Origin: Thermoanaerobaculaceae bacterium
GTDB taxonomy: Bacteria; Acidobacteriota; Thermoanaerobaculia; Multivoradales; UBA5704
DNA length: 64,000 nt
Reading direction: 5' to 3'
Assembly (NCBI GenBank): GCA_963785165.1
Contig: CAWAUI010000007.1
Span: 1,032,732-1,096,731, forward strand
The position numbers and the translations under genes were made by a program. Below the pieces are notes generated by a model. That model made no database searches. It had not been told where the DNA came from and saw only the letters and a list, made by a program, of their open reading frames with translations. Numbering within the stretch: position 1 is the stretch's first letter; the number at the start of each line of letters is the position of its first letter. Shown piece after piece: positions 5,534 through 52,435 of this stretch.

Positions 5534-6016
5534 ATGGCAAAAAATGGCAAGAAGAGGGATACCCAGGAGCCCGGCAACACGGACGGAATCTCCCAGGACC
5601 AGTTCCTTGAAGGTTTGAACGTCGATCTCGCCCATGAGTACGCGGCGGTGATCCTGTACCGCACCTACGCCAGCCAGGTCCAGGGCCAGTGGCGCATGGA
5701 GCTACGCCAGTTCTTCGAGGCCGAAATCCCCGACGAGCTCGGCCACGCCCAGATCCTGGCCGACAAGATCGTGTCCCTGGGCGGCACCCCCACCACCGTC
5801 CCCGCGCCGGTCAAGCCGGCGAAGGACGCCAAGGAGATGCTCAAGAACGCCCTGGAGGATGAGATCGAGACCATCCAGCGCTACGTCCTGCGCCGCAAGC
5901 AGGCCGAGGCCCTGGGCCACTACGGACTGGCCGTCGAGTTCGACGACCTGATCCGCGACGAGACGACCCACCGCGACGAGATCCGGATGATCTTGAAGCG
6001 GTGGGACACCGGTTAG
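5534..6016 (+). CDS. Ferritin-like/Dps-bacterioferritin superfamily protein
   Basis: AAAGGAG RBS. Metal-ligand-like positions: EYAAVILYRTY, EAEIPDELGHAQILADKI, LEDEIETIQRY. Confidence 0.65.
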   Translation: MAKNGKKRDTQEPGNTDGISQDQFLEGLNVDLAHEYAAVILYRTYASQVQGQWRMELRQFFEAEIPDELGHAQILADKIVSLGGTPTTVPAPVKPAKDAKEMLKNALEDEIETIQRYVLRRKQAEALGHYGLAVEFDDLIRDETTHRDEIRMILKRWDTG

Positions 6017-6273
6017 GCCCCGGCTTCTCAACAGCGCAGTAACTGAAGCTCTGAGCTGGACGGAACGGAGCGGGCTCTCCGGCTCAGAGCCTTCCCTTGC
6101 GCCTCCTGACGAGCGAAGTCAGCACGGCGAGCTCCTCGGCTTCGTCCTCCGTGCTTCCGGCAGCCCGGTTGGAGACTGCCACGGTGGAGCTGGCCCGCAA
6201 GGTGATGGCGGAGATTGAGCTCGTGCAACTGATCCCGGACGACGGCTCACCTCTTGTTTCCAAGCGCGCTTCC

Positions 6274-6530
6274 CATAGTGCCGGCCTCGTCTCCCATAGT
6301 TTCAACACCGAGGAACATAGGCTGAAGTGTGGGAAACAATGTTCTCGCGCTTAAATACATAGTTCCAGCCTTGACGTCCATAGTTTCAACACCGAGGAAC
6401 ATAGGCTGAAGTGCGGGAAACAATGTTCTCGCGCTTAAATACATAGTTCCAACCTTGACGTCCATAGTTTCAAAGCCAAGGAACTAAGTGTGAGATGCGA
6501 GAAACAATGTTCTCGCGCTTCGCGGCCGGC
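6274..6530. repeat. AT-rich tandem repeat, about 88-bp unit x about 2.7 copies, each unit holding an inverted repeat GGAACAT-N22-ATGTTCTC
   Basis: Unit tccatagtttcaacaccgaggaacataggctgaagtg[t/c]gggaaacaatgttctcgcgcttaaatacatagttcca[g/a]ccttgacg occurs twice nearly perfectly, plus a degenerate third copy. It lies in the 700-bp gap between two convergent genes. Confidence 0.8.
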
Positions 6531-6713
6531 GCGTGAGCTTTCGCGGCCCGGCTCCGGGCGCACCGCATCTAGGCTCTGTCAAGGTAGAAACGACGGTAGG
6601 GGGCGGTCCGCGGGATGCCGTAGGCACCCTGCGTGGCCGCCCTGTTGCGGCAGGCGGCCTGACGGCCGTCAGGCCGGACAACCTAGGGCCGCCCCTACAG
6701 ATATCTCCCGCCT

Positions 6714-8672
6714 TTACTTCTCCTGGATCTCGATGAGGCTGCCGACCTTGGGGTTCTTGACCGTCTGGGTTTTGCCGGAGGGCCAGAGGACTTCGAGGGT
6801 GTCGGGCTTGGCGGTGTCGCCCAATCCAAAGTAGAGGGGCATGACGCTGTGGGAGAGGTAGCCGGAGGCGCCGTCGTTCCACTGGGTCCAGGTCTGGGTG
6901 CCGGCCTTGACGCGGACGCGGGCTCCCAGGGCGTCGCGGTTGGAGGTGGTGCCGGTGAGCTTCACCTTGAGGAAGCGCGGGGCCTTCTTACTGGATAGGT
7001 CGCTGACAAGAACCTGGGGCTCGGAGTTGAAGTCGTTGGTGACGACGTCGAGGTCGCCGTCGCCATCCAGGTCAAAGATGGCGGAGGAGCGGGAGCCCAG
7101 GGTGCTCATGATGCGGACGGTGCCGGTGCGGTTGGCGCAGGGGGTCTTCTTCTTGTCCTCGCCGTTGCAGTCCATGTCGGTCATATGGAAGTGGGTGCGG
7201 CCGCCGCGGCGCGGCTCGACGCCGAGGATGAATTCGCTGTCGCGGAAGATCTTCCCCTGGTCGTTCAAGAGCAGGGAGCTCACCCCGTAACGGAAGGGGA
7301 AGTTCATGCTGGCGGTGATGAAGAGATCCTGGTAGCCGTCGGCGTTCAGGTCCGCGGCGCTGACGCCCCAGGGCCAGTAGTTCTCGACTCCCATGGCGTC
7401 GGAGACTTCGGCGAACTTGCCGTCGCCCTCGTAGTGGAAGAGGGAGTTGCCGAAGACGTTGTTGGCACCGCCCTGGAGCATCTGGTCGTTCCACTGCATG
7501 TCGGACTTGAGCTTCTCCTTGTCGGGGCCGATGAGGAGGCTCATGTCCGAGTGCATGTCGGTGATCATGACGTCGGGCCGGCCGTCGTTGTCGTAGTCGA
7601 AGGACTTGATGCCCATGGCGCCCCAGGAGGTCTTGGGGAAGTACTGGGCGCCCTTCTCGACGAAGGTCTTGCCCCCCTGGTTCTCCCCTTGATTTTCCCA
7701 GTAATGATTGTCGCCCTGCATGTTGAGGACGTAGAGGTCGGGCCAGCCGTCTTCATTGAAGTCGAGCACGGAGGCGTCGCCGGTCCAGCCGCCGTCCACG
7801 AGGCCGGTCTCCTTGGAGACGTCCTTGAAGCGGTGGTTGCCGAGGTTCTTGTAGAGGATGCTGGTCTCGGTGCGGTCGGGGTGGAGATGGCCGGCGAAGG
7901 CGTCCTCGACGCCCACGTAGTAGCCGCCGCGGCCGGTCTTGTCGGTGGTGTAGCGGCCGACGTTGGCGAGGAAGAGGTCGAGGAGGCCGTCGCGGTCGTA
8001 GTCGAAGAAGACGGCGCCGGAGGAGTGGCCGTTGTAGTCCAGGCCGGCTTCCTGGGAGACGTCCTTGAAATGCCCCTTGCCGTCGTTCAGGAAGAGGTGG
8101 TTCCCCTTGCGGACGGTGGTGACGAAGAGGTCGGGGTCGCCGTCGTTGTCCACGTCGGCGAAGGAGGGGGCGATGCTGATCTGGTCCTCGAGGCCGACCC
8201 CGGCGGCGGCGGTGACGTCGCGGAAGGTGCCCTTGCCGAGGTTCTTCCAGAGCTGGTTCTCGCCGAGCTGGGTGGTGAAGTAGAGGTCGAGGAGGCCGTC
8301 CTTGTCCACGTCGGCCACGGCGACGCCGTTGCCGTGGTCGTAGTGGACCATCTTGTACTCGCGCCCGCTGTCGTCCACGGCCACGTTGCGGAAGGTGATG
8401 CCGCTTTCGGGCTGGCGGTCGGTGAGCTGGAAGCCGTGGAAGACGCCGATCTGGCCGGCCGTGGCCAGTTGGGCCGCCTTCCTCGCGGGGAGGTTGGCGA
8501 CGCCCTCGTCGTCCTGGGGGTAGTAGTAGTCGCCTCCCGCCTGGGGCTCCTGAGGCGTTGCCGGCGGGGCGGCCGCCATCTGGCCGTGGGCGTGGTCCAT
8601 GCCCTGGGCATGGAGCGCCGGGCTGAGGAGCACGGCGAGGGCAAAGAAGAGTCCGGATTTGCGATGAGACAT
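6714..8672 (-). CDS. Secreted CRTAC1/ASPIC-UnbV family protein with FG-GAP/VCBS repeats
   Basis: Signal peptide MSHRKSGLFFALAVLLSPALHAQG. Repeated DxDGDGxxDL and FxNxGxGxF FG-GAP motifs. C-terminal UnbV/ASPIC region. Confidence 0.85.
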   Translation of the reverse strand: MSHRKSGLFFALAVLLSPALHAQGMDHAHGQMAAAPPATPQEPQAGGDYYYPQDDEGVANLPARKAAQLATAGQIGVFHGFQLTDRQPESGITFRNVAVDDSGREYKMVHYDHGNGVAVADVDKDGLLDLYFTTQLGENQLWKNLGKGTFRDVTAAAGVGLEDQISIAPSFADVDNDGDPDLFVTTVRKGNHLFLNDGKGHFKDVSQEAGLDYNGHSSGAVFFDYDRDGLLDLFLANVGRYTTDKTGRGGYYVGVEDAFAGHLHPDRTETSILYKNLGNHRFKDVSKETGLVDGGWTGDASVLDFNEDGWPDLYVLNMQGDNHYWENQGENQGGKTFVEKGAQYFPKTSWGAMGIKSFDYDNDGRPDVMITDMHSDMSLLIGPDKEKLKSDMQWNDQMLQGGANNVFGNSLFHYEGDGKFAEVSDAMGVENYWPWGVSAADLNADGYQDLFITASMNFPFRYGVSSLLLNDQGKIFRDSEFILGVEPRRGGRTHFHMTDMDCNGEDKKKTPCANRTGTVRIMSTLGSRSSAIFDLDGDGDLDVVTNDFNSEPQVLVSDLSSKKAPRFLKVKLTGTTSNRDALGARVRVKAGTQTWTQWNDGASGYLSHSVMPLYFGLGDTAKPDTLEVLWPSGKTQTVKNPKVGSLIEIQEK

Positions 8673-8695
8673 GAAGTTGATCTCCCCTATGCTCA

Positions 8696-8745
8696 GGTGG
8701 CCATTTCGGTGGAGGCCATTTCGGTGGTGGCCATTCCGGTGGAGG
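8696..8745. repeat. Three tandem 15-bp direct repeats (gccatttcggtggag-like) in the divergent promoter region
   Basis: gtggccatttcggtggag gccatttcggtggtg gccattccggtggagg, between the ASPIC gene start (8672, minus) and the coxI start (8966, plus). Confidence 0.7.
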
Positions 8746-8965
8746 ATGATACGCGAGGTTGCGGCCCGGCCGACCCGTCCCGTACCCCTGCCTTGCGGGT
8801 TGCAAGGCGCCTGTCGTAGACTCAGCCGTCTTTTTCAGAACAGCCGTTCGCATGCTGTACAGAGGTCGCCAAGATGCGGGGCAGATTCCAGGGGCCGCGG
8901 CAGTGCGTCCGCTGCCGGCCGGCTCGTTCTGTCCGTTCCGATCACCGTCCGAAGGGAGATCGTAG

Positions 8966-10741
8966 ATGGCACTAGTCGACGAACGGGCCCATGGTCATCA
9001 CGAGGCCCACCACCACGAAGAGCAGAGTTTCTGGACCAAGTACGTTTTTTCCCAGGATCACAAGGTCATCGGGATCCAGTACGGGTTCACGGCGCTCGTG
9101 TTCCTCCTCTTCGGCTTCACGCTGATGATGATGATGCGCTGGTCGATGGCGTATCCGAACCAGCCCATCCCCCTGGTCGGCGGCCTTCTGAAGGCGAGCG
9201 GGGGGATCATCGCGCCGGAGCTCTACAACCAGCTCGGGGCCATGCACGGCACGATCATGGTGTTCCTCGGGATCGTGCCGCTGGCCGTGGGCGCGTTCGG
9301 CAACTACCTGGTGCCGCTCCAGATCGGCGCGCCGGACATGGCGTTCCCGAAGCTGAACATGGCGAGCTACTGGTGCTACTTCGTGGGCGGCGTGCTGATG
9401 CTGGCGAGCTTCTTCGCTCCCGGCGGCGCGGCACAGTCGGGTTGGACCTCCTACCCGCCGCTGTCGAACATCGCCACCTCGGGCCAGACGATCTGGCTGT
9501 TCGGCATGCTGGCGCTGATCATCTCGTCGGTGCTGGGCTCGACGAACTTCATCGTCACCATCGTCCAGCTCCGGGCCCCGGGCCTGACGTGGATGCGGCT
9601 CCCCTTCTTCGTATGGGCGCAGTTCGTGACGTCGTTCCTGCTGCTGCTGGCCTTCCCGGCGCTCCAGGCGGCGGCGGTGCTGCAGATGATGGACCGGCTG
9701 GCGGGGACGAGCTTCTTCATGCCGAGCGGCCTGGTGATCTCGGGCCAGCAGCTCGCGGTGTCGGGCGGCGGCAGCCCGCTCCTCTGGCAGCACCTGTTCT
9801 GGTTCCTGGCCCACCCGGAGGTCTACGTGCTGATCCTGCCGGCCTTCGGGATCATCGGCGAGGTGATCGCCAACAACACGAGGAAGCCCCTGTGGGGCTA
9901 CCGCTCGATGGTGTACGCGATCTCGTTCCTGGGCTTCATGTCGTTCATCGTGTGGGCGCACCACATGTTCATGACCGGCATGGGCACGGTGATGAGCACG
10001 TTCTTCCAGACCACGACGATGATCATCTCGGTGCCGTCGGTCATCGTTTTGACGGCCATGATCATCTCGCTGTGGGGGGCCTCGATCCGCTACACGGTGC
10101 CGATGCTGTTCGCCATGGCCTTTCTCCCGATGTTCGCCATCGGCGGCCTGACGGGCCTGCCGCTGGGCCTGGCGCCCACGGACATCCACCTGCATGACAC
10201 GTACTACGTGATCGGCCACTTCCACTACGTGGTGGCGCCGGGGACGATCTTCGCGATGTTCGCCGGCATCTACTACTGGTTCCCCAAGCTGACGGGCCGC
10301 AAGATGAGCACGCTCTTGGGGCATCTGCACTTCTGGCCGTCGTTCCTGTTCATCAACGGCGTGTTCGGGCCGATGTTCATCCAGGGCTTGGCGGGCGTCT
10401 CGCGCCGGCTGTACGACGGCGGCGCCGCGTACTCGCACGCCCAGCCGGTGCTGCACTGGAACGCCTTCATGTCGGTGTCGGCCTGGCTGCTCGGCCTGGC
10501 GCAGATCCCGTTCATCCTCAACCTCTTCTGGAGCATCTGGAAGGGGAAGAAGGTGGGCGCCAACCCATGGGACGCCACGACGCTCGAGTGGGCCGCCGCG
10601 CCGTCGCCGCCGGTCGCCCATGGCAACTTCGTGGAGATCCCGACGGTGGTCCGCGGACCGTACGACTACAGCCTGCCGGGGGCCCCCTCGGACTTCGTCC
10701 CGCAGCACCAACCACTCCCGCAGTTGCCGCAGGAGGCTTGA
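8966..10741 (+). CDS. ctaD: Cytochrome c oxidase (heme-copper oxidase) subunit I
   Basis: Canonical 12-TM sequence: WTKYVFSQDHKVIGIQY..., HHMFMTGMG, WAHHMF, GHFHYVV, with the His ligands for heme a/a3 and CuB. Confidence 0.95.
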   Translation: MALVDERAHGHHEAHHHEEQSFWTKYVFSQDHKVIGIQYGFTALVFLLFGFTLMMMMRWSMAYPNQPIPLVGGLLKASGGIIAPELYNQLGAMHGTIMVFLGIVPLAVGAFGNYLVPLQIGAPDMAFPKLNMASYWCYFVGGVLMLASFFAPGGAAQSGWTSYPPLSNIATSGQTIWLFGMLALIISSVLGSTNFIVTIVQLRAPGLTWMRLPFFVWAQFVTSFLLLLAFPALQAAAVLQMMDRLAGTSFFMPSGLVISGQQLAVSGGGSPLLWQHLFWFLAHPEVYVLILPAFGIIGEVIANNTRKPLWGYRSMVYAISFLGFMSFIVWAHHMFMTGMGTVMSTFFQTTTMIISVPSVIVLTAMIISLWGASIRYTVPMLFAMAFLPMFAIGGLTGLPLGLAPTDIHLHDTYYVIGHFHYVVAPGTIFAMFAGIYYWFPKLTGRKMSTLLGHLHFWPSFLFINGVFGPMFIQGLAGVSRRLYDGGAAYSHAQPVLHWNAFMSVSAWLLGLAQIPFILNLFWSIWKGKKVGANPWDATTLEWAAAPSPPVAHGNFVEIPTVVRGPYDYSLPGAPSDFVPQHQPLPQLPQEA

Positions 10742-10745
10742 GGCC

Positions 10746-11345
10746 ATGATGGACATTCCGTATACCACCAAGCTCCGGCCCGATACCGGCCTGTACAACG
10801 CCAAGCTGGGGATCTGGCTGTTCCTGGCGTCCGAGGTGATGCTGTTCGGCGCCCTGTTCTCCTCGTACGTGCTGCTGCGCACGGGGGCCCCTCCGGGCAC
10901 CTGGCACCATGGCCGGGAGTACCTGAGCGTGCCGCTCGCGACCCTCAACACGATCGTGCTCATCGGCTCCTCGGTGACCATGGTGATGGCGTGGGCGTCG
11001 CTCAAGCTCAACGACTTCAAGAAGTACAAGATGTACATGGCCATGACGTTCCTGGCCGGCGTGGGCTTCCTGATCATCAAGGGGATCGAGTACAACGCCA
11101 AGTTCCACCACGGCTACTTCCCGAGCAAGAACACGTTCCTCGCCATCTACTTCACGCTGACGGGCCTGCACGGCCTGCACGTGATCGGCGGGATGATCGT
11201 CAACGGCTACTTCTGGGGCCCCGGCTCGAAGATGTGGAAGACCCAGCCCGACCGGTTCGCGAACCGGATCGAGGTGGCGGGCCTCTACTGGCACTTCGTG
11301 GACCTGGTGTGGATCTTCCTGTTCCCGGTCCTGTACCTGCTCTAG
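10746..11345 (+). CDS. ctaE: Cytochrome c oxidase subunit III
   Basis: MMDIPYTTKL...GLYWHFVDLVWIFLFPVLYLL. It starts 4 nt after the coxI stop. Confidence 0.9.
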   Translation: MMDIPYTTKLRPDTGLYNAKLGIWLFLASEVMLFGALFSSYVLLRTGAPPGTWHHGREYLSVPLATLNTIVLIGSSVTMVMAWASLKLNDFKKYKMYMAMTFLAGVGFLIIKGIEYNAKFHHGYFPSKNTFLAIYFTLTGLHGLHVIGGMIVNGYFWGPGSKMWKTQPDRFANRIEVAGLYWHFVDLVWIFLFPVLYLL

Positions 11346-11363
11346 GCGAGGAGAGAGACGACG

Positions 11364-11669
11364 ATGAGCGCAACCGACGCTGATTCGATCCGGAAACAGA
11401 CCCGGGCCTACGTCGGGGTCTTCCTGGCCCTGATGGTTCTGACCGTGCTGACGGTGGCCGTCAGCTACTTCCACATGCCCGTCGTCTGGGCCGTGGTCGT
11501 GGCCCTGATCATCGCCAGCTTCAAGGGTTCGCTGGTGGCGGCGGTGTTCATGCACCTCAACCACGAGCGCAAGGCGATCTACTGGCTGCTGCTGCTGACG
11601 GTGCTCTTCTTCATCATGCTGATGGCGATCCCGTCGCTGTGGCATTGGGACGGGCGGTACGTGCGGTGA
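11364..11669 (+). CDS. Cytochrome c oxidase subunit IV (prokaryotic caa3/aa3-type small subunit)
   Basis: About 100 aa with 3 TM; AYVGVFLALMVLTVLTVAVSYF...; its position after coxIII fits this role. Confidence 0.65.
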   Translation: MSATDADSIRKQTRAYVGVFLALMVLTVLTVAVSYFHMPVVWAVVVALIIASFKGSLVAAVFMHLNHERKAIYWLLLLTVLFFIMLMAIPSLWHWDGRYVR

Positions 11670-11884
11670 GCCTGTCGCTACGGTCGTTCCACCTGTTTTT
11701 CATCGCCGTCTCGGTGCTCCTGGCGGCGTGGGTGGGCGTCTGGGGGGTGCAGAGTTACCTTGCCACGCACAGCGTGAGCGACCTCGCGCTGGGAGTGGTG
11801 TTCTTCTTGCTCGGATTCGTCCTGTTGATCTACGGCCGGAACGTGCGGAGCAAGCTGCGCGCGCTGGCGCCGGACGAGGAGTGA
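11666..11884 (+). CDS. Hypothetical 2-TM small membrane protein in the cox operon
   Basis: The GTG start overlaps the coxIV stop (GTGA). SFHLFFIAVSVLLAAWVGVWGV...VVFFLLGFVLLIYG. Confidence 0.35.
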   Translation: MSLSLRSFHLFFIAVSVLLAAWVGVWGVQSYLATHSVSDLALGVVFFLLGFVLLIYGRNVRSKLRALAPDEE

Positions 11885-11889
11885 CACCG

Positions 11890-12171
11890 ATGAAGACGAC
11901 GAAGACGCTCAAGACGCTCAGCATGGCCCTGGCGGCGGCTTGGCTCGCGCTGCCGCCGGCCGCCCAGGCCTGCGCCACCTGCTACGGCGCGGCCGACTCG
12001 CCCATGACGAAGGGCATGAACAACGCCATCCTCACGCTGATCGCCCTGGTGGGCCTGGTCTACGTGGGGATCGGCAAGGTGATCCTCGATTTCCGGCGTC
12101 GTTCCAGGAAGCTATCGGACAAGGCTTCGGTGCGGCAGCGACTGCGCCTCATCCACGGAGAGAAACAGTGA
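11890..12171 (+). CDS. Small exported/membrane-anchored protein with a CxxC motif just after the predicted signal-peptide cleavage site (AQA/CATCYG)
   Basis: MKTTKTLKTLSMALAAAWLALPPAAQACATCYG..., followed by a TM segment ILTLIALVGLVYVGIG. Its stop overlaps the coxII start. Confidence 0.4.
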   Translation: MKTTKTLKTLSMALAAAWLALPPAAQACATCYGAADSPMTKGMNNAILTLIALVGLVYVGIGKVILDFRRRSRKLSDKASVRQRLRLIHGEKQ

Positions 12172-13130
12172 TGGACAGGACTTACGGATTTCCTCTGAAT
12201 TTCCCTCCGGATGGATCGGAGCATGGCCTGGAGCTCGACAAGCTGACGGGTGTGATCCACTGGTTCATGCTCATCCTGTTCGTCGGGTGGGGGCTGTTTT
12301 TCCTCTACTGCCTGTACCGTTTCCGCCGCAAGGCCAACCCGGTGGCGAGCTACGGCGGCGCCAAGGGTCACTTCTCGACCTACGGCGAGGCGGGCGTGGT
12401 GCTGGTGGAGGTCATCCTGCTGGTCGCGTTCGCGGTGCCGATCTGGGCGCGGCGGGTCAACGTCGTCCCCGACAAGTCGCAAGCCGTGCAGGTGCGGGTG
12501 GTCGCGGAGCAGTTCGCGTGGAACGTCCACTACCCGGGTCCGGACGGCCTCTTCGGCCGCACCGATTCGAAGCTCGTCACCTCGGGCACCAACCCGCTGG
12601 GGCGCGACCTCGACGATCCGGCCGGCAAAGACGACATCACGACCATCAACCAGCTCCACCTCCCCGTGGGCAAGCCGGCGCTGATCTACCTGACCAGCAA
12701 GGACGTGATCCACAGCTTCTTCCTGCCCACCATGCGGGTGAAGCAGGACGCCATCCCCGGCCAGGTGATCCCGGTCTACTTCACGCCCACGATGGTCAAC
12801 CCGCCGGAGGCGGCACTGCCCGGGTGCGCCGTCAAGAAGACCTGCTGGGAGATCGCCTGCGCGCAGCTCTGCGGCCTCACCCACTACCGCATGCAGGGGT
12901 ACCTGACGATCCACACCCAGGAGAACTTCGACGCCTGGCTGGCGAAGAACGCCCCCGCGCCGCCTCCGGCTCCCGTCGCGGAACCGGCTGCGGAACCGGC
13001 TGCCGCGGCTCCGGCCGCTCCGGCGGTCTACAGCGGCCTCACCCCAGCCCTCTCCCGAGAAGGAGAGGGAGCGGCGGACAAACACGGCTCCCGCAAACCC
13101 CCTCTCCTTTCAGGAGAGGGGTTGGAGTGA
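12171..13130 (+). CDS. ctaC: Cytochrome c oxidase subunit II with a CuA site and no c-type heme domain
   Basis: Two N-terminal TM helices. The CuA ligands are H (VIHSFFLP) and CWEIACAQLCGLTHYRM. The Pro/Ala-rich C-terminal tail has no CxxCH. Confidence 0.85.
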   Translation: MDRTYGFPLNFPPDGSEHGLELDKLTGVIHWFMLILFVGWGLFFLYCLYRFRRKANPVASYGGAKGHFSTYGEAGVVLVEVILLVAFAVPIWARRVNVVPDKSQAVQVRVVAEQFAWNVHYPGPDGLFGRTDSKLVTSGTNPLGRDLDDPAGKDDITTINQLHLPVGKPALIYLTSKDVIHSFFLPTMRVKQDAIPGQVIPVYFTPTMVNPPEAALPGCAVKKTCWEIACAQLCGLTHYRMQGYLTIHTQENFDAWLAKNAPAPPPAPVAEPAAEPAAAAPAAPAVYSGLTPALSREGEGAADKHGSRKPPLLSGEGLE

Positions 13131-13227
13131 GTTGGAGTGAGGCCCGCGCGTGCATCCCCCGACCGTTCGCGCTAGACTCTGCGCGGCGCTCCCCGTCCCG
13201 ACAAGGCGTCTTTCTCGTGAGTCATCA

Positions 13228-14139
13228 ATGAGCACCATGCCATCCACAGAATCGGTCGAGGGTACCTCTTTGCCTGTCTCCGTTCGCCTGGCCGATTTCT
13301 GGGAGATGACCAAGCCGGGGATCACCCTCATGGTGGTGCTCACGGCCGGTCTGGGCTTCCTGCTGGCCGAGCAGGGGAGCTTCCACTTCCTGCTCCTCGT
13401 CTACACGCTCCTCGGTACAGGCCTCATTTCGGCCGGCGGGTCGGTGCTCAACCACGTCCTCGAGCGCGACACCGACGCCCTCATGACCCGCACCGCGAAC
13501 CGGCCTCTGCCCACCGGGCGGATGAACCCGGACGTGGCGCTGTCGTTCGGCGTCGTGCTGGCCGTCCTGGGCCTGCTCGACCTCGCCCTGGGGGTGAACC
13601 TGCTCACGGCCCTGCTCGGTGCCGTGGCCCTTGCCGGCTACGTCTTCGTCTACACGCCGCTCAAGCGGATCAGCTCGCTCGCCACCGTCATCGGCGCCGT
13701 GCCGGGGGCCATTCCGCCCATGATGGGGTGGAGCGCCGTGCGCAACGAGCTCGACCCCGCGGCCTGGGTGCTCTTCGGCATCCTGTTCTTCTGGCAGCTC
13801 CCGCACTTCCTGGCCATCGCCTGGCTCTGCCGGGAGGACTATGCCCGCGGCGGCTTCCCCATGCTGCCGGTGCTCGATCCGGAAGGAACCCGCACGGGCC
13901 GCCAGGCCATTCTCTACGGCGCGGCCCTGGTGCCGGTGTCGCTCCTGCCGTCGCTCCTCGGGCTCATGGGCACCATCTACTTCGTGGGTGCCCTGGCGTT
14001 CGGCCTCGCCTACCTCGGCTTCTCCTTCGCCTTTGCCCAGGCCCGCTCGAATCCCGGAGCACGCCGGCTCATGCTGGCCTCGCTCCTCTACTTTCCGGCC
14101 TTGCTGCTCATCATGCTGCTGGACCGCGTGGCCTCCTGA
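13228..14139 (+). CDS. ctaB: Protoheme IX farnesyltransferase (heme O synthase)
   Basis: UbiA-family motifs: NHVLERDTDALMTRTANRPLP, YVFVYTPLKR; about 9 TM. Confidence 0.85.
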   Translation: MSTMPSTESVEGTSLPVSVRLADFWEMTKPGITLMVVLTAGLGFLLAEQGSFHFLLLVYTLLGTGLISAGGSVLNHVLERDTDALMTRTANRPLPTGRMNPDVALSFGVVLAVLGLLDLALGVNLLTALLGAVALAGYVFVYTPLKRISSLATVIGAVPGAIPPMMGWSAVRNELDPAAWVLFGILFFWQLPHFLAIAWLCREDYARGGFPMLPVLDPEGTRTGRQAILYGAALVPVSLLPSLLGLMGTIYFVGALAFGLAYLGFSFAFAQARSNPGARRLMLASLLYFPALLLIMLLDRVAS

Positions 14140-14147
14140 TTTCCTCC

Positions 14148-15144
14148 ATGACATCCCCTGGGGGATCACCGCCTCCCGCCGTCCAGGCGCAGGGTCTTCA
14201 TTATTCCTACAAGGGAAAACCCTATAAAGGCAAGCGCAAGGGCGGACCGTCCCGGCCGGCGCTCGCGGGGATCGATTTCTCGGTCTCGGCAGGCGAGATC
14301 TTCGGCTTCCTCGGACCCAACGGCGGCGGCAAGACCACCCTCTTCCGCATCCTCGCCACGCTCGCCCGGCCCGACGCGGGCACCGTCAGCATTCTCGGCG
14401 CCGACCTGGGAACCCAGGCCGTCGAGGTGCGCCGCCGGCTCGGCGTCGTCTTCCAGAACCCGAGCCTCGACCTCCAGCTCACCGTGCGCGAGAACCTCGT
14501 CCACCAGGGCCAGCTCTACGGCCTATCCGGCATGGAGCTCGCGGCCCGGACCGCCGCCGCCCTCAACCGCTTCGGCCTCGGCGACCGCGCGGGGCAGAAG
14601 ACCCTGGAGCTTTCGGGGGGATTGAGACGGCGGGTCGAGATCGCCAAGGCCCTCCTGCACGCCCCTCGCCTGCTGCTTCTGGACGAGCCGAGCACCGGCC
14701 TCGATCCGGGAGCCCGGCGGGATCTCTGGGAGACTCTGGAAAGCCTGCGCATCGAGGGAGTGACGGTGCTCCTCACCACCCACTTCATGGAAGAGGGGGA
14801 CCGCTGCGGCCGGCTCGTGCTCCTCGACCGCGGCGCCATCGTGGCCGAGGGCTCGCCCGCGGCCTTGAAGGAAGAGATCGGCGGCGACGTGATTACGGTC
14901 ACCGGTCCGGAGCCGGAAGCCCTGGCGCGCGACCTCGCCGCCCGCTTCCCGGACCTCGGCCCCACGTTGAGCGACGGCACCGTCCGCATCCTCCGCGAGC
15001 GCGGCCACGAGCTGGTGCGCCCGCCTGGCCGAGGCCCTGCCGGGGCGGATCGACTCCGTCACCGTGGCCCGGCCCAGCCTGGAAGACGTCTTCCTGCGCC
15101 GCACCGGCCACCATCTCTTCAGCGAAGAAGAGGCCGCCGCTTGA
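14148..15144 (+). CDS. ABC transporter ATP-binding protein (ABC-2/NosF-like), frameshifted near 15018
   Basis: Walker A GPNGGGKTT, signature LSGGLRRRVEIAKAL, Walker B LLLLDEPSTGLD. The C-terminus ...ELVARLAEALPGRIDSVTVARPSLEDVFLRRTGHHLFSEEEAAA is only recovered in the +1 frame. Confidence 0.8.
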
Positions 15145-15146
15145 CG

Positions 15147-15923
15147 ATGAAGATAATGCTCGCCGTCTACACCCTCTGGCGCCGCGAGCTGACGCGTTTC
15201 TTCCGCCAGCCCAGCCGCATCGCCGGCGCCGTGGCCACGCCGCTCATCTTCTGGCTCCTTCTCGGCAGCGGCCTCTCCGGCTCCTTCCGGCTCCCCGGCG
15301 GGCCGGAGAGCGTGGACTACCTGGAGTATTTCTTCCCCGGAACCATCGTCCTCGTGCTGCTTTTCGCCGCGATCTTCTCCAACATCTCCGTCATCGAAGA
15401 CCGCCACGAAGGCTTCCTCCAGGGCGTGCTGGTGGCGCCGGTGGGGCGCGCCACCCTGGTGGCCGGCAAGGTGCTGGGCGGCTCCACCCTCGCCTGGCTC
15501 CAGGCGATCGTCTTCCTGGCCCTGGCCCCCGCGGCGGGCATCCACCTGACGTTCTGGAACCTCCTGGCGGCGGCGGGCGTGCTGGCCGTGCTGGCCGTGG
15601 CCCTGTCGGCCCTGGGCTTCGCCTTCGCCTGGAAGCTCGACTCCGTCCAGGGTTTCCACGCCATCATGAACATCGTGCTCATGCCGATGTGGATGCTCTC
15701 CGGCGCCTTCTTCCCCGCCAGCGGCGCCCCCGGCTGGCTCGCGGCGCTCATGCGGTTCAATCCCCTCACCTACGGGATCGCGGCGCTGCGCCACGCCTTC
15801 TACGGCGCCGCTCTCGAGGAGGGGATGCCGGGGGTGGCGCTGTCTCTGGCCGTCACCCTCGCCGTGGGCCTCGCCTCCTTCGCGTCCTGCCTGCTCGCCA
15901 CCCGGGGCGCGAGGGTCGAGTGA
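15147..15923 (+). CDS. ABC-2 family transporter permease
   Basis: Six-TM ABC-2 architecture (FRQPSRIAGAVATPLIFWLLLG...). It starts 3 nt after the ATPase stop. Confidence 0.75.
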   Translation: MKIMLAVYTLWRRELTRFFRQPSRIAGAVATPLIFWLLLGSGLSGSFRLPGGPESVDYLEYFFPGTIVLVLLFAAIFSNISVIEDRHEGFLQGVLVAPVGRATLVAGKVLGGSTLAWLQAIVFLALAPAAGIHLTFWNLLAAAGVLAVLAVALSALGFAFAWKLDSVQGFHAIMNIVLMPMWMLSGAFFPASGAPGWLAALMRFNPLTYGIAALRHAFYGAALEEGMPGVALSLAVTLAVGLASFASCLLATRGARVE

Positions 15924-16519
15924 ACGTCCGCCGGGGCCTCCTCTGGGGGATCCTGATCGCGGTGCTCCTCCTGGTGGCCGCCGCGGCCCTGGTCCAGCGC
16001 CTCCACCGTCCCGATCCCCCGCCCATCCTCGGCCAGGTGCCGGACTTCACCCTCACCAACCGCGACGGCCGCACCGTCCACCGCGCCGACTTGGCCGGCG
16101 CCCCCTGGATCGCCGACTTCATCTTCACCCGCTGCCCCGCCTCCTGCCCCATCATGACCACCCGCATGGCCCGCCTGAACCGCGAGCTGCCGCCGGACCT
16201 CGGCCTCCGTTTCGTCTCCTTCACCGTCGATCCGGACCACGACACCCCCCAGGTTCTGCAGAAATACGCCGCCTCCTTCCAGGCTCCCGAGCGCTGGCTC
16301 TTCCTCACGGGCGGCAAGGACACGCTCTACCGGCTCTCCCAGGAAGGCTTCAAGCTGGGAGTCGCCCTCAATACCGAGCCGGGCACCGTCGAGCCGATCC
16401 TCCACAGCACGCGGTTCGTGCTGGTGGATGGGGAGGGACGGATTCGGGGGTATTACGATGGGTTTGATGAGGAGTCGGTGGGGCGGTTGGAGGGTGATCT
16501 CAGGGCTTTGGTGGAGTAG
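15920..16519 (+). CDS. SCO1/SenC family copper chaperone (thioredoxin fold)
   Basis: N-terminal TM anchor and the CxxxC motif FIFTRCPASCP; conserved His in LHSTRFVLVD. The GTG start overlaps the permease stop. Confidence 0.8.
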   Translation: MNVRRGLLWGILIAVLLLVAAAALVQRLHRPDPPPILGQVPDFTLTNRDGRTVHRADLAGAPWIADFIFTRCPASCPIMTTRMARLNRELPPDLGLRFVSFTVDPDHDTPQVLQKYAASFQAPERWLFLTGGKDTLYRLSQEGFKLGVALNTEPGTVEPILHSTRFVLVDGEGRIRGYYDGFDEESVGRLEGDLRALVE

Positions 16520-17951
16520 AGCCGGCCGCGGCTTTTCTTCTCGCCTTCTCTGCCTTCAGCTCCTCGATGGCCGCACGGATTTCATCCTCATAAGGTATTG
16601 GTTCTACTTTCGAGGGATCGAAGGGCGGCAACTCTGGCTCAGGTATGCCAAGCCGTGCGAGGATCCTTTTGGAGTTCTCCAAATCCCACCAGAAGATGTG
16701 CGGCGGGCCGTCTGCCCAAGCTTTCTTGTAGGCGAGCATGGCGTGTTCCTTCGCTTTATTACAGTCGTCGAGCTGTAGATAAACCTCAGCGGCTTCCCAG
16801 TTACCCTCTAAGCCAGCCTCTTCTACCAAACTTTGAGCCTCATAGAGGCGGCCCTGCATTGCCAAGATTCGTGCAATAAAGACTTTGCCGTAAGCGTCTG
16901 GGACTCCAGTTTTCCTGAGAATCTCTATCTCGCGGTCGGCGGCTTCAACGGCTTCGTGGAGTATTCCTTTGCGTAAGGCTATCTCAGCTTGAAGGTGGAG
17001 AATGGTACTCTGGCCCGAAAGGTTTTTCCCTCGGATGGTCATCTTTAGGGCCTCTTCCAGTTCTGTAGCTTGTAGCTTATTCCGCCGAAACTTCAACCAG
17101 CAGAGAATGGCTTCGACACTGCCGATGCGGTATTGATGGCGTTCAGGGGTTGGGCGTGCAGAGAAAGCGGTGCAAGCAGTCTGCGCGTCTTTATCGCGGC
17201 CCTCGTCGAAATATAATTTTGCAAGCTTATACAAAATCCCTGTGGCAACATTCTTTGCTCCTGCTGCTAGGGCAAGGTTATAAGCCAGCTCAGAGCCATT
17301 TATGGCGGTTGCCAATTTACCTGAGATGGAGGCTCCAGTTGCATAATTTACTATATTGACCGATAGGTCTCTCCAGTTTTCCGATTCGAGGTTGAGCCTG
17401 ATGGCCAGCTGCAGTCTTGCTTGTGACTCTTTGTGGCGGCCGAGTTCCTTGAGTGCTACCCCCAGGCTATTAATTATGAGGCCCTGGTCTTTAACGGAAC
17501 TTAAGGCCGGCGGGCTCTCTGAGCCGTTGGTAAACATTGGGGTAAGCAGTTCAACTACTGTAGGATAAGATCCTATAGAGAAAAGTAATGAATCGTTGAG
17601 GCCGCCAAGGTAAAGGCTGGCTGCTTGAGCAAGCCTTCCGGCCCCCATAAGAGCTCGAAAAATTTGAAGAGTGTTCCTGACGTGAGAGACATCAGTGGCA
17701 TCATTAAAATCTTCTGGCGGCAGTGCCTCAAAATGATCGCGGATCCGATCATAAGTTTGTATCCTATCATCTTTTTCGATCTGATCAAAGGCGTATCCAC
17801 GTACCACGGGATGCAAGTCGTAGGTATTGCTGTGACGGTTCCACTGCAAGAGTCCCCGGCTCTCTAGCTCACTCAAGGCTGTGTCGAAATCCGCAATCGT
17901 TGCTTTGTATTTTAATGATCCCAAGTACGTATCTGATGCGTTCTCGGGCAT
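16500..17951 (-). CDS. STAND NTPase, C-terminal module: winged-helix remnant plus a TPR-repeat sensor. It is in frame with 18018..19448 across a single TGA at 18018-18020.
   Basis: It begins ...ALSELESRGLLQWNRH (NB-ARC WH-like), followed by multiple TPR-like repeats. The 22 codons between the TGA and the first Met are sense. The 3' end overlaps the sco1 3' end by 20 bp. Confidence 0.65.
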   Translation of the reverse strand: MPENASDTYLGSLKYKATIADFDTALSELESRGLLQWNRHSNTYDLHPVVRGYAFDQIEKDDRIQTYDRIRDHFEALPPEDFNDATDVSHVRNTLQIFRALMGAGRLAQAASLYLGGLNDSLLFSIGSYPTVVELLTPMFTNGSESPPALSSVKDQGLIINSLGVALKELGRHKESQARLQLAIRLNLESENWRDLSVNIVNYATGASISGKLATAINGSELAYNLALAAGAKNVATGILYKLAKLYFDEGRDKDAQTACTAFSARPTPERHQYRIGSVEAILCWLKFRRNKLQATELEEALKMTIRGKNLSGQSTILHLQAEIALRKGILHEAVEAADREIEILRKTGVPDAYGKVFIARILAMQGRLYEAQSLVEEAGLEGNWEAAEVYLQLDDCNKAKEHAMLAYKKAWADGPPHIFWWDLENSKRILARLGIPEPELPPFDPSKVEPIPYEDEIRAAIEELKAEKARRKAAAGSTPPKP

Positions 17952-18017
17952 AGAGGGGAGGTATGGATTGAGAATCGCTAGAGTGGCGTAGTCCGCCGCA
18001 TCGCTCAGAACGGCAAC

Positions 18018-19448
18018 TCAACTCAATAGTTGCTTTTTCTGCAGATCGAGTCCATCGAAGGCGTAAGCTAGAATGTGGGTACGGCGTTGCTTGAGATCTA
18101 GCTCGCTTAAACGAAGACTACCGCCTTCTTGGGGATCCGCTAGCCACCGATCGAAATCTCCCGGGGCGGGTCGGTAATCTAAGATACGGCCAGCGAGGAC
18201 TCCAATGAGCAGACTATGATTATCGAACTGCCGTAAGAACCGCCGGATGGCGGCCGAGTTACCATGGGTTCCCAGGCTTTTGAAGAGGCTCTCGCCGTCG
18301 GCTGGATCAAGACCTCGCAGCTTCAGGTGACGGACACCTGGAAGCGGCTGGTGGGCTCGGTTTTCCAGTGATGAAGGCATTAGCCGGGTCGTAATCAGGA
18401 ATTTGGATGGCGAGCACCCGACGAGTTGCCGAAGGAGATCCTCGGTACGAGGATTTGTACAGGAGCGATGGTCGGTTTTCACCTGATCGTCCTGTAGCTT
18501 CGAAGGGTCGAGTTGATGATAAGCGGTGAGCAGCCGCTCGAAACCGTCTAATACGAGGAGGTAGGGACGCCGCCGCAACTCAGTAAGGAGCCTCTGGATC
18601 TGCTCATCCTGAGGAACGTTTCGAAGATCCTCCGGGTCTATGGGAGTAACGTAGGCCAGTGCCTCCCGTACGAAGGAGACTGTGGAGGCGCCGCCCTCGT
18701 AGAAACTCCACCAGAGGGCCCCGGCGAGAATAGGTATCGCCTTCGATGCCCGATCTCGTGCCCACTCCCAGGTCAATGCGCTCTTGCCAACGCCGCCAAT
18801 CGCCTCTACAACCAGCATCGTTTCCGACGAGCGTGCCCAGGTATCAAGATCGTTCAGCTCCTTCCGACGGCCGATGAATTGGGTTGTCTGGATGTAGGGC
18901 GGAACGCTGTGCATTTCCGGTGGGGTAGGGAGGGACCGACGAACTGGGGTAGGCTTGGCAGTGGGAGACGTGGCCTCGGTCTGGGCAAGATCGTGGCCTA
19001 GGAGGAGAACATCTTCCTTAAACGTCCCGACATCCTGGAACTTTTTCCAGGTGTGCTTCTTGCCGATCTTCTCCTTGAAGAGATCAAGCCGTTCGGAGTT
19101 TTTTCCCTTGTCCATTTTGGAGGCGGGCCAAGGGTGATCGGGATCGATGACGAAGAGGTGGGTCGGCAGGTTCCGCTCGATCGCCCAGTTGTACTCCATT
19201 TCGGTGATTGACACCTCGGAGCCGTCCGGGATGTAACCATAGCGGTGGGCGTAGACGCCGAGAAAAAGGTCGGCTTCCTCTACCTTGGCCTTGCAGAAAG
19301 CGATGGCGTCTCGGGGATCTGGCGGGAAGTCTTCCATGTAAACGGGGATCAGCCCGACCCGGCGGCAGGCGTGAATGGCGGCCTCTCGGTACTCCACAAG
19401 GTCGAGGAAGGTGCTGCTGAGGAAGACCTTCTTAGCTAGAGTGGGCAT
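18018..19448 (-). CDS. STAND NTPase, N-terminal module: DUF4062-like domain plus NB-ARC/AP-ATPase P-loop domain. It ends at an in-frame TGA and continues in frame with the next feature.
   Basis: About 50% GC versus about 68% in the flanks. The N-terminus KVFLSSTFLDLVEYREAAI...HLFVID matches the DUF4062 pattern. Walker A VVEAIGGVGKSALT, Walker B PYLLVLDGFERL, then a sensor/winged-helix region. Confidence 0.7.
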   Translation of the reverse strand: MPTLAKKVFLSSTFLDLVEYREAAIHACRRVGLIPVYMEDFPPDPRDAIAFCKAKVEEADLFLGVYAHRYGYIPDGSEVSITEMEYNWAIERNLPTHLFVIDPDHPWPASKMDKGKNSERLDLFKEKIGKKHTWKKFQDVGTFKEDVLLLGHDLAQTEATSPTAKPTPVRRSLPTPPEMHSVPPYIQTTQFIGRRKELNDLDTWARSSETMLVVEAIGGVGKSALTWEWARDRASKAIPILAGALWWSFYEGGASTVSFVREALAYVTPIDPEDLRNVPQDEQIQRLLTELRRRPYLLVLDGFERLLTAYHQLDPSKLQDDQVKTDHRSCTNPRTEDLLRQLVGCSPSKFLITTRLMPSSLENRAHQPLPGVRHLKLRGLDPADGESLFKSLGTHGNSAAIRRFLRQFDNHSLLIGVLAGRILDYRPAPGDFDRWLADPQEGGSLRLSELDLKQRRTHILAYAFDGLDLQKKQLLS

Positions 19449-19590
19449 AGTGGATGGTCGTTATTATAGGAAGGAACGGGACATTGGCGTCTGAAGGCGT
19501 GATGGAGCGCCCTGTGGAAGACCTTGGGATGTTCCTCGGCGGTCTTTGAGTGCTCCGGCGGCAGCGGCGGGCGGTTCAAGACGCGTTTTA

Positions 19591-20037
19591 GTCAGGCTCT
19601 GTGCTGCCCGAGGATCAGGAGATCCAGCCCTCGAAACTGCCGGAACGCCGCATCCGTTGTCACCATTCGGTATCGGCCTGCCAGAGCGAAGGCGGCGAGG
19701 TAGGCATCCAGAGTTTGGGGGACGCCGTCTCGCGGACGGCAAGTTGTTTCCACAGGGAATCCAACTCAGCCGGTTCGTCGGCCTGGAAGACGATCCGGTC
19801 GTCAGCAAGCAAGGCTTCCCAAACTGCCCACGCCTCGCGATTCGTCAGCGGCGGATTCCCATAAAGGCCCAGGACTGTGGAATTGGTGAGTAGCCGGAGA
19901 AAGGACTGTTGAGTCGCTCGGCACAGTACTACCGATGCCGGATCCTCCACGGTTTCCAGCCACTCACGTGCAACGGTGTGGTGGCTGTGTCCGGAAAGAG
20001 CCAAGGCCAGCCAGACGTTGCTATCGCAGAAGATCAC
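19591..20037 (-). CDS. vapC: Type II toxin VapC (PIN domain), frameshifted at a G5 run near 19745
   Basis: MIFCDSNVWLALAL...; the conserved C-terminus LDAYLAAFALAGRYRMVTTDAAFRQFRGLDLLILG only appears in the alternate frame. Confidence 0.75.
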
Positions 20038-20293
20038 GATGCCACTTGGCTTCCTCTTCGAGCAACACGTCGGCCACCCGCTCCGGGGTCAACTCCTCGT
20101 CGGCGCGGGCTTCGTGGGCGCACTCGACGAGCGGCAACTTGACCCGCCTGCGAATCGGCCCCTGCACACGGGACTGCGCCAAGCCGCGTCTCAATAGGAA
20201 GGCCATCATGTCCTTGAGCTTCCTGTTCTCCTCGACGGCTCGGATTTTTACCGCGCGCATGACGTCATCGGGGAGGTCCAGCGTCGTCTTCAT
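20021..20293 (-). CDS. vapB: VapB-like antitoxin (ribbon-helix-helix)
   Basis: MKTTLDLPDDVMRAVKIRAVEENRKLKDMMAFLLRRGL; it overlaps the vapC start by 17 bp. Confidence 0.6.
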   Translation of the reverse strand: MKTTLDLPDDVMRAVKIRAVEENRKLKDMMAFLLRRGLAQSRVQGPIRRRVKLPLVECAHEARADEELTPERVADVLLEEEAKWHRDLLR

Positions 20294-20530
20294 GAGCCCA
20301 TTTTACCAGAAGGCTGGTTTACTAGCATGGGGGTGGAACGGAGGCGTTTGCTGGGCGGTTCCACCCTGGCCTGGCTCCAGACTGCCGTCGCCCCGCTGGG
20401 GCTTCTGGGTCATGGAGGGCGGTTTTCCCGGCGCTGAAGCGCCGGTCTAGGATGATCTGGCCTGTAGCATAGCGCCCCTGGGAGCGCGCCGACGGTCCAA
20501 GGGGGCTATCCTGTCCGTCTTGATGGAGCC

Positions 20531-27664: not shown

Positions 27665-27740
27665 CGCCGATCAAGCTAGCACAACCCCATGTATCCTTGG
27701 CCCCTGGAGCGCATCCAAGTTGGGGAGGACGAGAACGATC

Positions 27741-28388: not shown

Positions 28389-28429
28389 ACGGGGAGCGGT
28401 CCCGCGCCAGCACCCTCTCCTCCCATGGC

Positions 28430-34428: not shown

Positions 34429-34593
34429 CGGGGGCTGCCCTCCTTTGTTTACGGCGTTCCTTCAATTATAAGCCCTCACCCCCCCCCCGGCCCTCCCGGA
34501 AGGCAAGGACCCCAAGGACACCAAGGGCTTCAGGGACGGGCAACGCGTCTCTCCTCAAGCGTCCTTGCCGTCCCTGGTGTCCTTGAGGTCCTT

Positions 34594-47292: not shown

Positions 47293-47351
47293 CATTTCGC
47301 CTTCGAACGTTGGGCTGAGCTTTCCCAGAGCGGAACCAACCTAGCCGGCGG

Positions 47352-52372: not shown

Positions 52373-52435
52373 CGGGGGCTCCTTCCGAATAGGGGCGGCC
52401 CCGGGGGCCGCCCCTACGGTCATTTCGTCAGCAGA

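Follow-up and report, generated by a model that had tools for sequence, protein, structure and literature searches.

The stretch of DNA analysed here (hereafter the window) comprises 64,000 nucleotides of contig CAWAUI010000007.1 of a Thermoanaerobaculaceae bacterium and contains, between a ferritin-like gene and a CRTAC1-like gene, a tandem-repeat array at positions 6274-6525. The ferritin-like gene (5534-6016, plus strand; Pfam Ferritin, 8.3e-22) has its nearest homologues among proteins of Thermoanaerobaculia metagenome-assembled genomes (MAGs), to which it is 83-91% identical, and these homologues assign the window to Thermoanaerobaculia within Acidobacteriota. The CRTAC1-like gene (6714-8672, minus strand; Pfam FG-GAP_3 and UnbV_ASPIC) turns its stop codon towards the intervening gap, which measures 697 bp (6017-6713). 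An initial annotation made from the letters alone had described this gap as long, convergent and non-coding, and the repeat unit in it as AT-rich for the genome. These points hold. Both flanking genes have Pfam support, and the GC content drops to 43-45% in 100-bp segments and is 47.6% across the array, relative to 66.6% in the whole window.

Two structured elements lie in the same gap. Just 3' of the ferritin-like gene is a plus-strand hairpin with a 16-bp stem (6045-6094, with arms at 6045-6056 and 6081-6094 rather than spanning 6047-6103 as initially reported), the RNA fold of which has a free energy of −30.7 kcal/mol (z = −3.4; 0/200 shuffles as low). This hairpin is terminator-like but lacks a U-tract and was not called by a terminator scan. 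On the other side, nested palindromes (GTAGGGGGCGGTCC ... GGGCCGCCCCTAC; 6596-6700, no strand assigned) resembling repetitive extragenic palindromic (REP) sequences include a perfect 16-bp palindrome, correctly recognized in the initial annotation but located at 6658-6673 instead of 6657-6672. Although it adjoins the array, this GTAG-led, GC-rich element (fold −68.3 kcal/mol, z = −3.1) does not belong to it and is of a dispersed type. Its GTAGGGGCGGCC... hairpin is also present in loci of relatives (designated by L numbers), namely in L001 between the ferritin and carboxyl-transferase genes and in L021 and L051 3' of CRTAC1, and the GTAGGGGCGGCC 12-mer, with one mismatch allowed, has 34 matches in 582 kb, six of them within the window. 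Inverted pairs occur in L001, in L021 and at 52389/52406 of the window.

Further members of this REP-like family, GTAGGGGCGGCC(C)T..GTGGCCGCC, which often form inverted pairs, bring its sites to 6596-6700, 30185, 37077, 52389-52417 and 61651 in the window, 6514-6560 in L001, 1506-1582 in L021 and 5894 in L051. A weak Y1_Tnp gene, possibly RAYT-like, was seen at 9736-10590 of L083. Beyond the gap, a 15-bp tandem repeat (GGAGGCCATTTCGGT; 8696-8745, 3.3 copies, 88% match) is located in the divergent gap between the starts of CRTAC1 (8672) and COX1 (8966).

The array is built of twelve phased 21-bp units

The array, to which no strand was assigned, consists of three copies of an 84-bp unit (6274-6357, 6358-6441 and 6442-6525), and Tandem Repeats Finder (TRF) and a second repeat finder agree on 3.0 copies. 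The initial annotation was thus right about the tandem repeat itself but not about its period (given as 88 bp) or its copy number (given as about 2.7). Pairwise identities among the copies are 77/84, 68/84 and 61/84, copies 2 and 3 being 92% and 73% identical to the first. For 28-mer and 19-mer probes from the unit no matches are expected by shuffling, which places the repeat far above chance.

A finer structure had been missed in the initial annotation. Each 84-bp unit is composed of four degenerate 21-bp sub-units that are about 62% alike by hand count, so that the array as a whole holds 12 of them. When the sequence is written in a 21-base register from 6274, eight of the 12 lines start with CATAG, three with CAATG and one with CTAAG; across the CAWWG core, C is present in 12 units, A in 11 and G in 12. 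The sub-unit core can be written CATAG(T)T, replaced by CAATG in every fourth unit, and the reverse-complement motif is G(G/A)AAC(T/A)ATG. CATAG itself stands at 6274, 6295, 6316, 6358, 6379, 6400, 6442 and 6463, at exact multiples of 21 bp, and these eight occurrences are among 22 in the entire 64 kb.

Inside a single 84-bp unit, circular self-identity is highest at a lag of 21 (0.50; 0/5000 shuffles), followed by a lag of 42. Because this signal was measured within one unit, it is independent of the recent triplication and indicates that four diverged 21-bp units together make up the 84-bp repeat as a block of higher order. TRF at looser settings likewise returned a period of 21 (10.3 copies). 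Twenty-one base pairs correspond to two turns of B-DNA.

The initial annotation had also assigned an inverted repeat and a ttgacg..catagtt motif to every unit. The dyad is indeed present, with GGAACAT (6312, 6396) separated from ATGTTCTC (6339, 6423, 6507) by 20 nt and not by 22, and with GGAACTA in place of GGAACAT in the third copy. TTGACG is confined to copies 2 and 3 (6371, 6455), where it lies 2 nt ahead of CATAGTT, a spacing that does not allow the two to be a −35/−10 pair.

Phased arrays lie 3' of CRTAC1 in relatives

The block formed by CRTAC1 and the cox operon is kept in L008, L009 and L010, whose CRTAC1 genes are 86-87% identical to that of the window and 90-93% identical to one another (L009 versus L010, 93%). 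In each of these three loci an array of a motif of about 9-10 bp, in both orientations and with a TRF period of 21, is located directly 3' of CRTAC1. The L008 array has 12 sites of the motif GGGGAATGC in 443 bp, compared with three in the other 17 kb; the L009 array (GGGGAATGTC and related cores) holds a 21-bp register over about 600 bp; and the L010 array (GGACCGTTCC) consists of 14 units of 21 bp. A GGAA/TTCC core is common to all four arrays. The window array cannot be aligned with the other three, among which L009 and L010 alone align (118 bp at 75%).

The spacings between sites in L008 are irregular (10, 11, 20, 21, 30-32 and 51 bp). The site centres are nevertheless phased at 10.35 bp (Rayleigh R = 0.955), and none of 2000 random sets reached as high a value.

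CRTAC1 relatives at 78-83% identity have no array, and another convergent gene abuts CRTAC1 in them; comparison with L084 and with positions 15924-16520 of the window identifies it as the SCO1-like gene. Separately, a more distant CRTAC1 homologue in L022 (63% identical) is followed, after about 235 bp, by a 20-bp array (6137-6302). The 10-mer TGTTCTCGCG is common to this array and to every fourth unit of the window array, with about 0.1 matches expected by chance according to a rough hand estimate; homology between the two is not established.

Long non-coding arrays repeat every 20 or 21 bp

We scanned 572 kb, consisting of the window and non-redundant loci, for periodicity at lags of 7-100 without bias towards any period and obtained 21 periodic regions. 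The coding regions among them have periods of 33/93 (HvfA-like), 87 (FG-GAP) and 18/57, and two regions are arrays of 9-bp hairpins. In all of the long non-coding arrays (9/9) the base period is 20 or 21 bp, despite unrelated motifs. These nine are the window array described above (array A, 84 = 4 × 21) and two further window arrays (B and C), together with the arrays of L009, L010, L017, L022, L083 (20.7 units) and L084.

Neighbouring units within these arrays are 50-70% alike, and apart from the 84-bp array of the window the arrays are GC-rich. In several of them the core is conserved while the linker varies, or the units are palindromic, and higher-order repeats of 42, 63 and 84 bp occur. 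Their neighbours include genes for a molybdopterin oxidoreductase, a rhomboid protein, isocitrate lyase, a DinB-family protein and an RPE65-family protein.

Array B (28400-28780) has about 10 units of 21 bp (CCGCGCCACCCCCCCCTCTTG) at 28402-28611 followed by about seven inverted units at 28620-28771, so that it forms a large imperfect palindrome, and it occupies the convergent gap between the molybdopterin oxidoreductase (27720-28388, plus strand) and rhomboid (28854-29699, minus strand) genes. Array C (47347-47507) has eight units of 20 bp, each palindromic (GTGGCGAcccTCGCC), and looks like an operator array. The gap that holds it is divergent; the isocitrate lyase gene lies about 155 bp downstream of the array, and on the opposite strand a gene encoding a 1270-aa VWA/Big_7 protein starts about 50 bp from it.

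The largest array observed is that of L083 (1613-2044), in which 20.7 palindromic units of 21 bp (CTCCGTCCcgGGACGGAGcgc) follow a carbamoyl-phosphate synthase gene and show a higher-order period of 42 bp (73% match). Hairpins built of tandem 9-mers, a further small type of repeat, have about four copies of CAAGGACAC followed by about four copies of the complement CGTCCTTGA and are present in several genomes. Their sites are 34504-34537 and 34560-34593 in the window, 5877-5981 in L016, 1155-1263 and 1787-1885 in L036, 2944-2998 in L012 and 3957-4012 in L013.

The array borders a rearranged block

The ferritin-like gene and the convergent carboxyl-transferase gene (20531-22195 in the window, minus strand; 95% and 88% identical to the orthologues in L001 and L002, respectively) are 70 bp apart in L001 and 4 bp apart in L002. 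Because they are nearly adjacent there, the block of about 14.5 kb that separates them in the window (6017-20530) is inserted or rearranged relative to these loci. In L003, L005 and L006 still other DNA follows the ferritin gene, and the array gap is present in none of the three. From left to right the block contains the array gap, CRTAC1, the cox operon, hvf-like genes, an SCO1-like gene, a split DUF4062 NTPase gene and a VapBC-like pair, and the GC content of its right part (16-20 kb) is 56.7% as compared with 66.6% for the window.

The split gene (18018-19448 and 16500-17951, minus strand; Pfam DUF4062) is of the DUF4062-AAA-TPR (STAND) type. Relative to the intact 869-aa protein of L008 (9951-12560), its N-terminal half (18018-19448) is 80% and its C-terminal part (16500-17951) 47% identical, and this uneven identity suggests decay or recombination. 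The DUF4062 and TPR proteins had no match in PADLOC.

In L008 the DUF4062 gene starts directly after the CRTAC1-side array, whereas its orthologue in the window lies at the far side of the block. The genes of the window are therefore in the L008 order, circularly permuted, and the break falls within the array or beside it. The region upstream of the window DUF4062 gene (19449-19600, minus strand) has weak similarity to the L009 and L010 arrays (blastn, 68% over 60 bp with the L009 gap, E = 2e-6; E = 3e-4 and 9e-4 with the L010 gap), and is probably the other piece of an ancestral array. It also has the 11-mer CCGAGGAACAT in common with the array units; this 11-mer was the sole match to the array at the right edge of the block and by itself is at chance level (E = 8.5).

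Among further loci with DUF4062 orthologues, two of three have an upstream array, lying directly before the gene in L008 and about 285-555 bp upstream in L084/L085. The L084/L085 order is CRTAC1, an ATPase_2/DUF234 gene, a 12-unit 21-bp array, DUF4062 and a convergent SCO1 gene, which makes the CRTAC1/SCO1 junction a hot spot for the accumulation of accessory genes and arrays.

Several small genes were recorded alongside. Judged from translations, a VapB-like antitoxin (20021-20293, minus strand) is accompanied by a PIN-domain VapC that is apparently frameshifted (19660-20037 and 19592-19753). Coding repeats of 33 bp (11 aa) of the GCCCTGGCCCTTGCAGGCGTT type are found at 52436-52858 (repeats at 52550-52705) and at about 13.6-15.9 kb beside the cox operon, and genes of this type adjoin MbnB/DUF692 and HvfC_N genes in relatives; they represent an HvfA-like repeat-peptide cluster that is apparently present twice in the window. 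3' of ferritin in L003 (6000-6190) and L005 (1245-1415) are two tandem tiny minus-strand open reading frames (ORFs), MKVKANVKAGG(V/I)(V/L)LGD*, each preceded by a stretch resembling a ribosome-binding site. These could encode leader peptides or peptides resembling precursors of ribosomally synthesized and post-translationally modified peptides (RiPPs).

Coding, promoter, origin and dispersed-element explanations

A period of 21 bp might reflect seven codons, but a coding repeat was rejected: stops interrupt all six frames of the array, and the members of the class with a 20-bp period are incompatible with coding. No ORF of the gap has a Pfam match, the longest (6097-6351, 85 aa) has no homologue among 1.84 billion representative proteins, and tblastn of the six gap frames against the fetched loci of relatives gave no match.

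A scan limited to sigma-70-like promoters and intrinsic terminators called neither in 5900-6800, which speaks against an array of sigma-70 promoters; by eye rather than by a tool, no sigma-54 or extracytoplasmic function (ECF)-type (GGAAC-N16-17-CGT) spacings were seen. An oriC or DnaA-box cluster was rejected, as the gap contains no TTATCCACA at up to one mismatch and there is no sustained GC-skew inversion at 6.3 kb. The GTCCACA-like cores of the L010 array do resemble DnaA boxes, but the motif differs among close relatives, which is incompatible with an essential origin. Nor is the array a CRISPR array, in which repeats of at least 23 bp would alternate with unique spacers of comparable length: here a core of 5-9 bp is conserved within a 21-bp period, and the would-be spacers are repeated in every 84-bp block.

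Probe matching found no second copy of the array unit in the window, no terminal inverted repeats surround the array in 5900-6800, and neither the loci of relatives nor the pattern scans yielded an alignable homologue of the 84-bp unit. Blastn against plasmid and phage records gave no match, contrary to a plasmid or phage origin. Pattern scans of genome, viral and metagenome collections, among which the source genome apparently is not represented, were negative except for one chance match. This match, to the pattern CATAGTTTCAA-N25-35-AACAATGTTCTC, was the single hit among genome contigs and lies inside a Lachnospiraceae coding sequence, and viral and metagenome contigs had none. The phased pattern CATAGTT-N14-CATAGTT-N14-CATAG gave 56 hits in viral contigs and proved too generic; the 12 hits inspected were unrelated tandem repeats with a period of 7 or 21 bp, or 21-bp repeats that look coding (seven codons), and most came from AT-rich viral genomes (10/12 with less than 50% GC).

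The dispersed family resembling satellites or miniature inverted-repeat transposable elements (MITEs) that had been suggested initially is accordingly not supported by copies in the window, in plasmid and phage records or, the chance match apart, in the pattern scans. The initial annotation had named, among the findings that would count against it, a unit that occurs nowhere else and a gap that close relatives lack. For the exact sequence both are literally the case, as relatives that share the ferritin neighbourhood do not have this gap. The architecture, however, does recur.

Interpretation of the array

Our preferred reading, to which we give a probability of roughly 0.4, is that the array is a fast-evolving, helically phased, putative protein-binding scaffold that was recently expanded by 84-bp duplication. 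It builds on what was observed: the anatomy of the repeat and its phase, the rearrangement, the existence of positional homologues and a period of 20/21 bp throughout the class. According to this reading, a four-unit block within an older array of 21-bp units would have been duplicated recently to give the 84-bp repeat. Every unit would contribute one core, short and degenerate (CATAGTT on one strand, GGAACTATG on its complement), with all cores on one face of the helix, and the array would act at the DNA level as a multi-site scaffold to which a putative protein binds cooperatively, as in an operator or iteron array. It would be the local version of a fast-evolving array situated just 3' of CRTAC1 in the clade, which in one relative (L008) makes up the 5' region of the DUF4062 STAND-type NTPase gene. 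In this genome a rearrangement with its breakpoint in or next to the array has parted CRTAC1 from DUF4062, leaving the block in its present place between ferritin and carboxyl transferase.

Same-face cooperative binding predicts both a two-turn period and the retention of phase, which favours a DNA-level nucleoprotein scaffold. The phasing of irregularly spaced sites in L008 is likewise predicted by same-face binding but not by plain duplication of units. The arrays upstream of DUF4062 in two of the three further orthologue loci, and the remnant at that place in the window, also count in favour of this reading. Protein binding, and with it the identity of the binder and any regulatory effect, is what we infer from this geometry. 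Among the options raised by the initial annotation, whose observation was confirmed in part, the repeated regulator binding site fits best, given the 21-bp sub-period and the equally phased arrays at the same place in relatives, while the small RNA and MITE options do not survive.

Several findings weigh against a protein-binding scaffold. No binding protein was identified, and Pfam revealed no obvious DNA-binding partner encoded by the neighbouring genes. The window array is flanked by the ends of two genes, so that no obvious target of regulation adjoins it. The motif changes even among the closest relatives, the L009 and L010 arrays being only partly alignable despite 93% identity of their CRTAC1 genes, and this change looks like turnover rather than conservation. 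Cores are not significantly better conserved than linkers between L009 and L010 (0.74 versus 0.61, p = 0.11), and no array follows CRTAC1 in L082 (86% CRTAC1 identity), L011, L067 and others. Finally, copies 1 and 2 are so alike that slippage or unequal exchange must have taken place recently, and neither process requires a function. The missing candidate binder, the motif turnover, the non-significant core test and the gene-end position bring the possibility of a functionless minisatellite close behind.

Such a minisatellite would have arisen from a short sequence by replication slippage or unequal crossing-over at a rearrangement-prone junction rich in accessory genes. Amplification would have yielded 21-mers to begin with and an 84-bp block afterwards, and the array would now be decaying; we regard this as possible though doubtful. 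The head-to-tail tandem copies are those of a minisatellite or variable-number tandem repeat (VNTR), and the absence of the exact unit elsewhere, the relatives that retain the ferritin neighbourhood but not the gap, the rapid turnover of arrays among close relatives (several of which have none), the core test between species and the higher-order repeats, which are typical of satellite evolution, would all be expected of it. Locus-specific, rapidly evolving tandem repeats are also documented in Borg elements (PMC9879509). Slippage, however, leaves unexplained why 9/9 unrelated arrays have a base period of 20/21 bp, why the irregularly spaced L008 sites keep a 10.35-bp phase, and why cores are kept within arrays while linkers vary. 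A common two-turn period of unrelated sequences, with phase kept across irregular spacings, makes slippage alone hard to credit.

A role in DNA mobility seems unlikely to us. The array would then be a functional site of the moved 14.5-kb block, or what is left of one, either within a region for attachment or recombination (arm-type sites) or as a plasmid-type iteron origin. Compared with L001 and L002 the block is an insertion, its order is permuted relative to L008 with a breakpoint at or beside the array and a remnant upstream of DUF4062 at the far side, its right end is marked by a toxin-antitoxin pair and lower GC content, and phased direct repeats of 21-22 bp are generally known as a hallmark of iterons. 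But Pfam scans found no integrase, transposase or Rep gene in the block, no direct repeat or terminal inverted repeat was found to flank it, and similarity to plasmid or phage records was not detected. Arrays of the same class lie elsewhere between ordinary housekeeping genes, and tandem duplication followed by deletions can also produce a permutation.

Less probable still, indeed very unlikely, is a function as RNA, be it a long structured 3' untranslated region (UTR) of CRTAC1 or of the ferritin gene or an independent non-coding RNA with repeated hairpins or protein-binding motifs (a CsrB-like sponge). The array is downstream of two genes and could be co-transcribed with them, every unit has a GAACAT/ATGTTC dyad, and the array folds better than shuffled sequences on the plus strand (z = −4.3) and less so on the minus strand (z = −2.6). 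Tandem repetition itself, however, inflates folding z-scores, so that the folding energy of the array is uninformative. Rfam gave no match at gathering score in the whole window, and in a permissive scan of 5950-6760 three hairpins matched below threshold, all outside 6274-6525. As there is also no sigma-70-like promoter or terminator, and 84 bp are too short for a promoter, an RNA and a terminator, the array of small RNA genes considered in the initial annotation is not supported. A CsrB/RsmZ-like sponge for CsrA was rejected because GGA is not enriched (five per strand in 252 nt versus 5.4-6.1 expected from the window average). The presence of both motif orientations in the homologous arrays and of 20-bp palindromes in the class points instead to recognition of double-stranded DNA, and the hairpins at 6045-6094 and 6596-6700 part the array from both genes.

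The putative scaffold may have a wider meaning, although we would sooner doubt than accept the following generalization. Thermoanaerobaculia may possess a pervasive, hitherto undescribed class of locus-specific arrays in which the two-turn period (20-21 bp, or a 10.35-bp phase) is held while the motif turns over, and which may serve as nucleoprotein scaffolds, either organizing or insulating chromatin or controlling accessory genes such as that of the DUF4062 STAND NTPase; the 84-bp repeat would then be a freshly expanded member. By itself the repeat is a small curiosity, and its interest derives from the unrelated arrays of the same period and from the CRTAC1-side array that keeps its phase and place although its motif changes among close relatives. 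If protein binding is real, this would point to a novel DNA-organizing or regulatory system in a large, uncultured and abundant soil lineage, and a simple signature (a period of 20-21 bp with a degenerate core) would suffice to find all members. If the arrays are neutral, they still mark a rearrangement hot spot for accessory genes (STAND NTPase, toxin-antitoxin pairs, ATPase_2/DUF234).

Comparison with known systems

In the literature searched we found no described equivalent of this array class, which does not prove that none exists; the analogies that emerged are the heptanucleotide elements of Geobacter, the repeats of Borgs and the TAACTGA repeats of Beggiatoa.

Plasmid and phage iterons are 17-22 bp long, with about two helical turns from one to the next, and comparable repeats make up type II partition centromeres, as in the 20-bp tandem ParR sites. 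On general knowledge, the present arrays resemble these in having direct repeats of about 20-21 bp, a two-turn phase, a core with a variable linker and 8-30 units of array-specific sequence, sometimes in two opposed blocks. The window array, with 12 units of exactly 21 bp, has the repeat geometry of iterons. It has neither an adjacent rep gene nor a plasmid or phage context: its neighbours are the ferritin-like gene, CRTAC1 and the cox operon, Pfam scans of the neighbouring genes found no Rep family, and in relatives the same region sits on 8-Mb contigs. The present arrays are, moreover, chromosomal, with several unrelated ones in 64 kb, and the 84-bp array has no Rep or Par neighbour and no similarity to plasmids or phages. 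Without a Rep/Par gene or a replicon context, the window array does not belong with iterons or centromeres despite its geometry.

REP sequences and bacterial interspersed mosaic elements (BIMEs) of enterobacteria and pseudomonads are likewise intergenic, often in convergent gaps, and arranged in tandem or alternating orientation, with some palindromic units. However, REPs exist as tens to hundreds of nearly identical dispersed copies, whereas the array motif is confined to a single locus, in units that form no palindromes and carry no GTAG signature. The combination that defines REP/BIME, a GTAG-led GC-rich palindrome with many dispersed copies, is seen in the element at 6596-6700 alone.

Known operator arrays of response regulators and ribbon-helix-helix repressors comprise 2-10 sites beside a promoter. 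They share with the present arrays short cores in helical register, direct or inverted, and the L008 array is, like them, upstream of a gene. The window array differs in having 12 units and in lying between two gene ends.

The tandem repeats of Borgs are locus-specific, rapidly evolving, perfect and A-rich (PMC9879509). Borg repeats and minisatellites of the VNTR type or of the mycobacterial interspersed repetitive unit (MIRU) type are similar to the arrays described here in their locus-specific units, their fast evolution, the existence of intergenic units of 20-21 nt and a presence that varies among close relatives. In contrast to Borg repeats (PMC9879509), the present arrays are degenerate, helically phased and organized into higher-order blocks.

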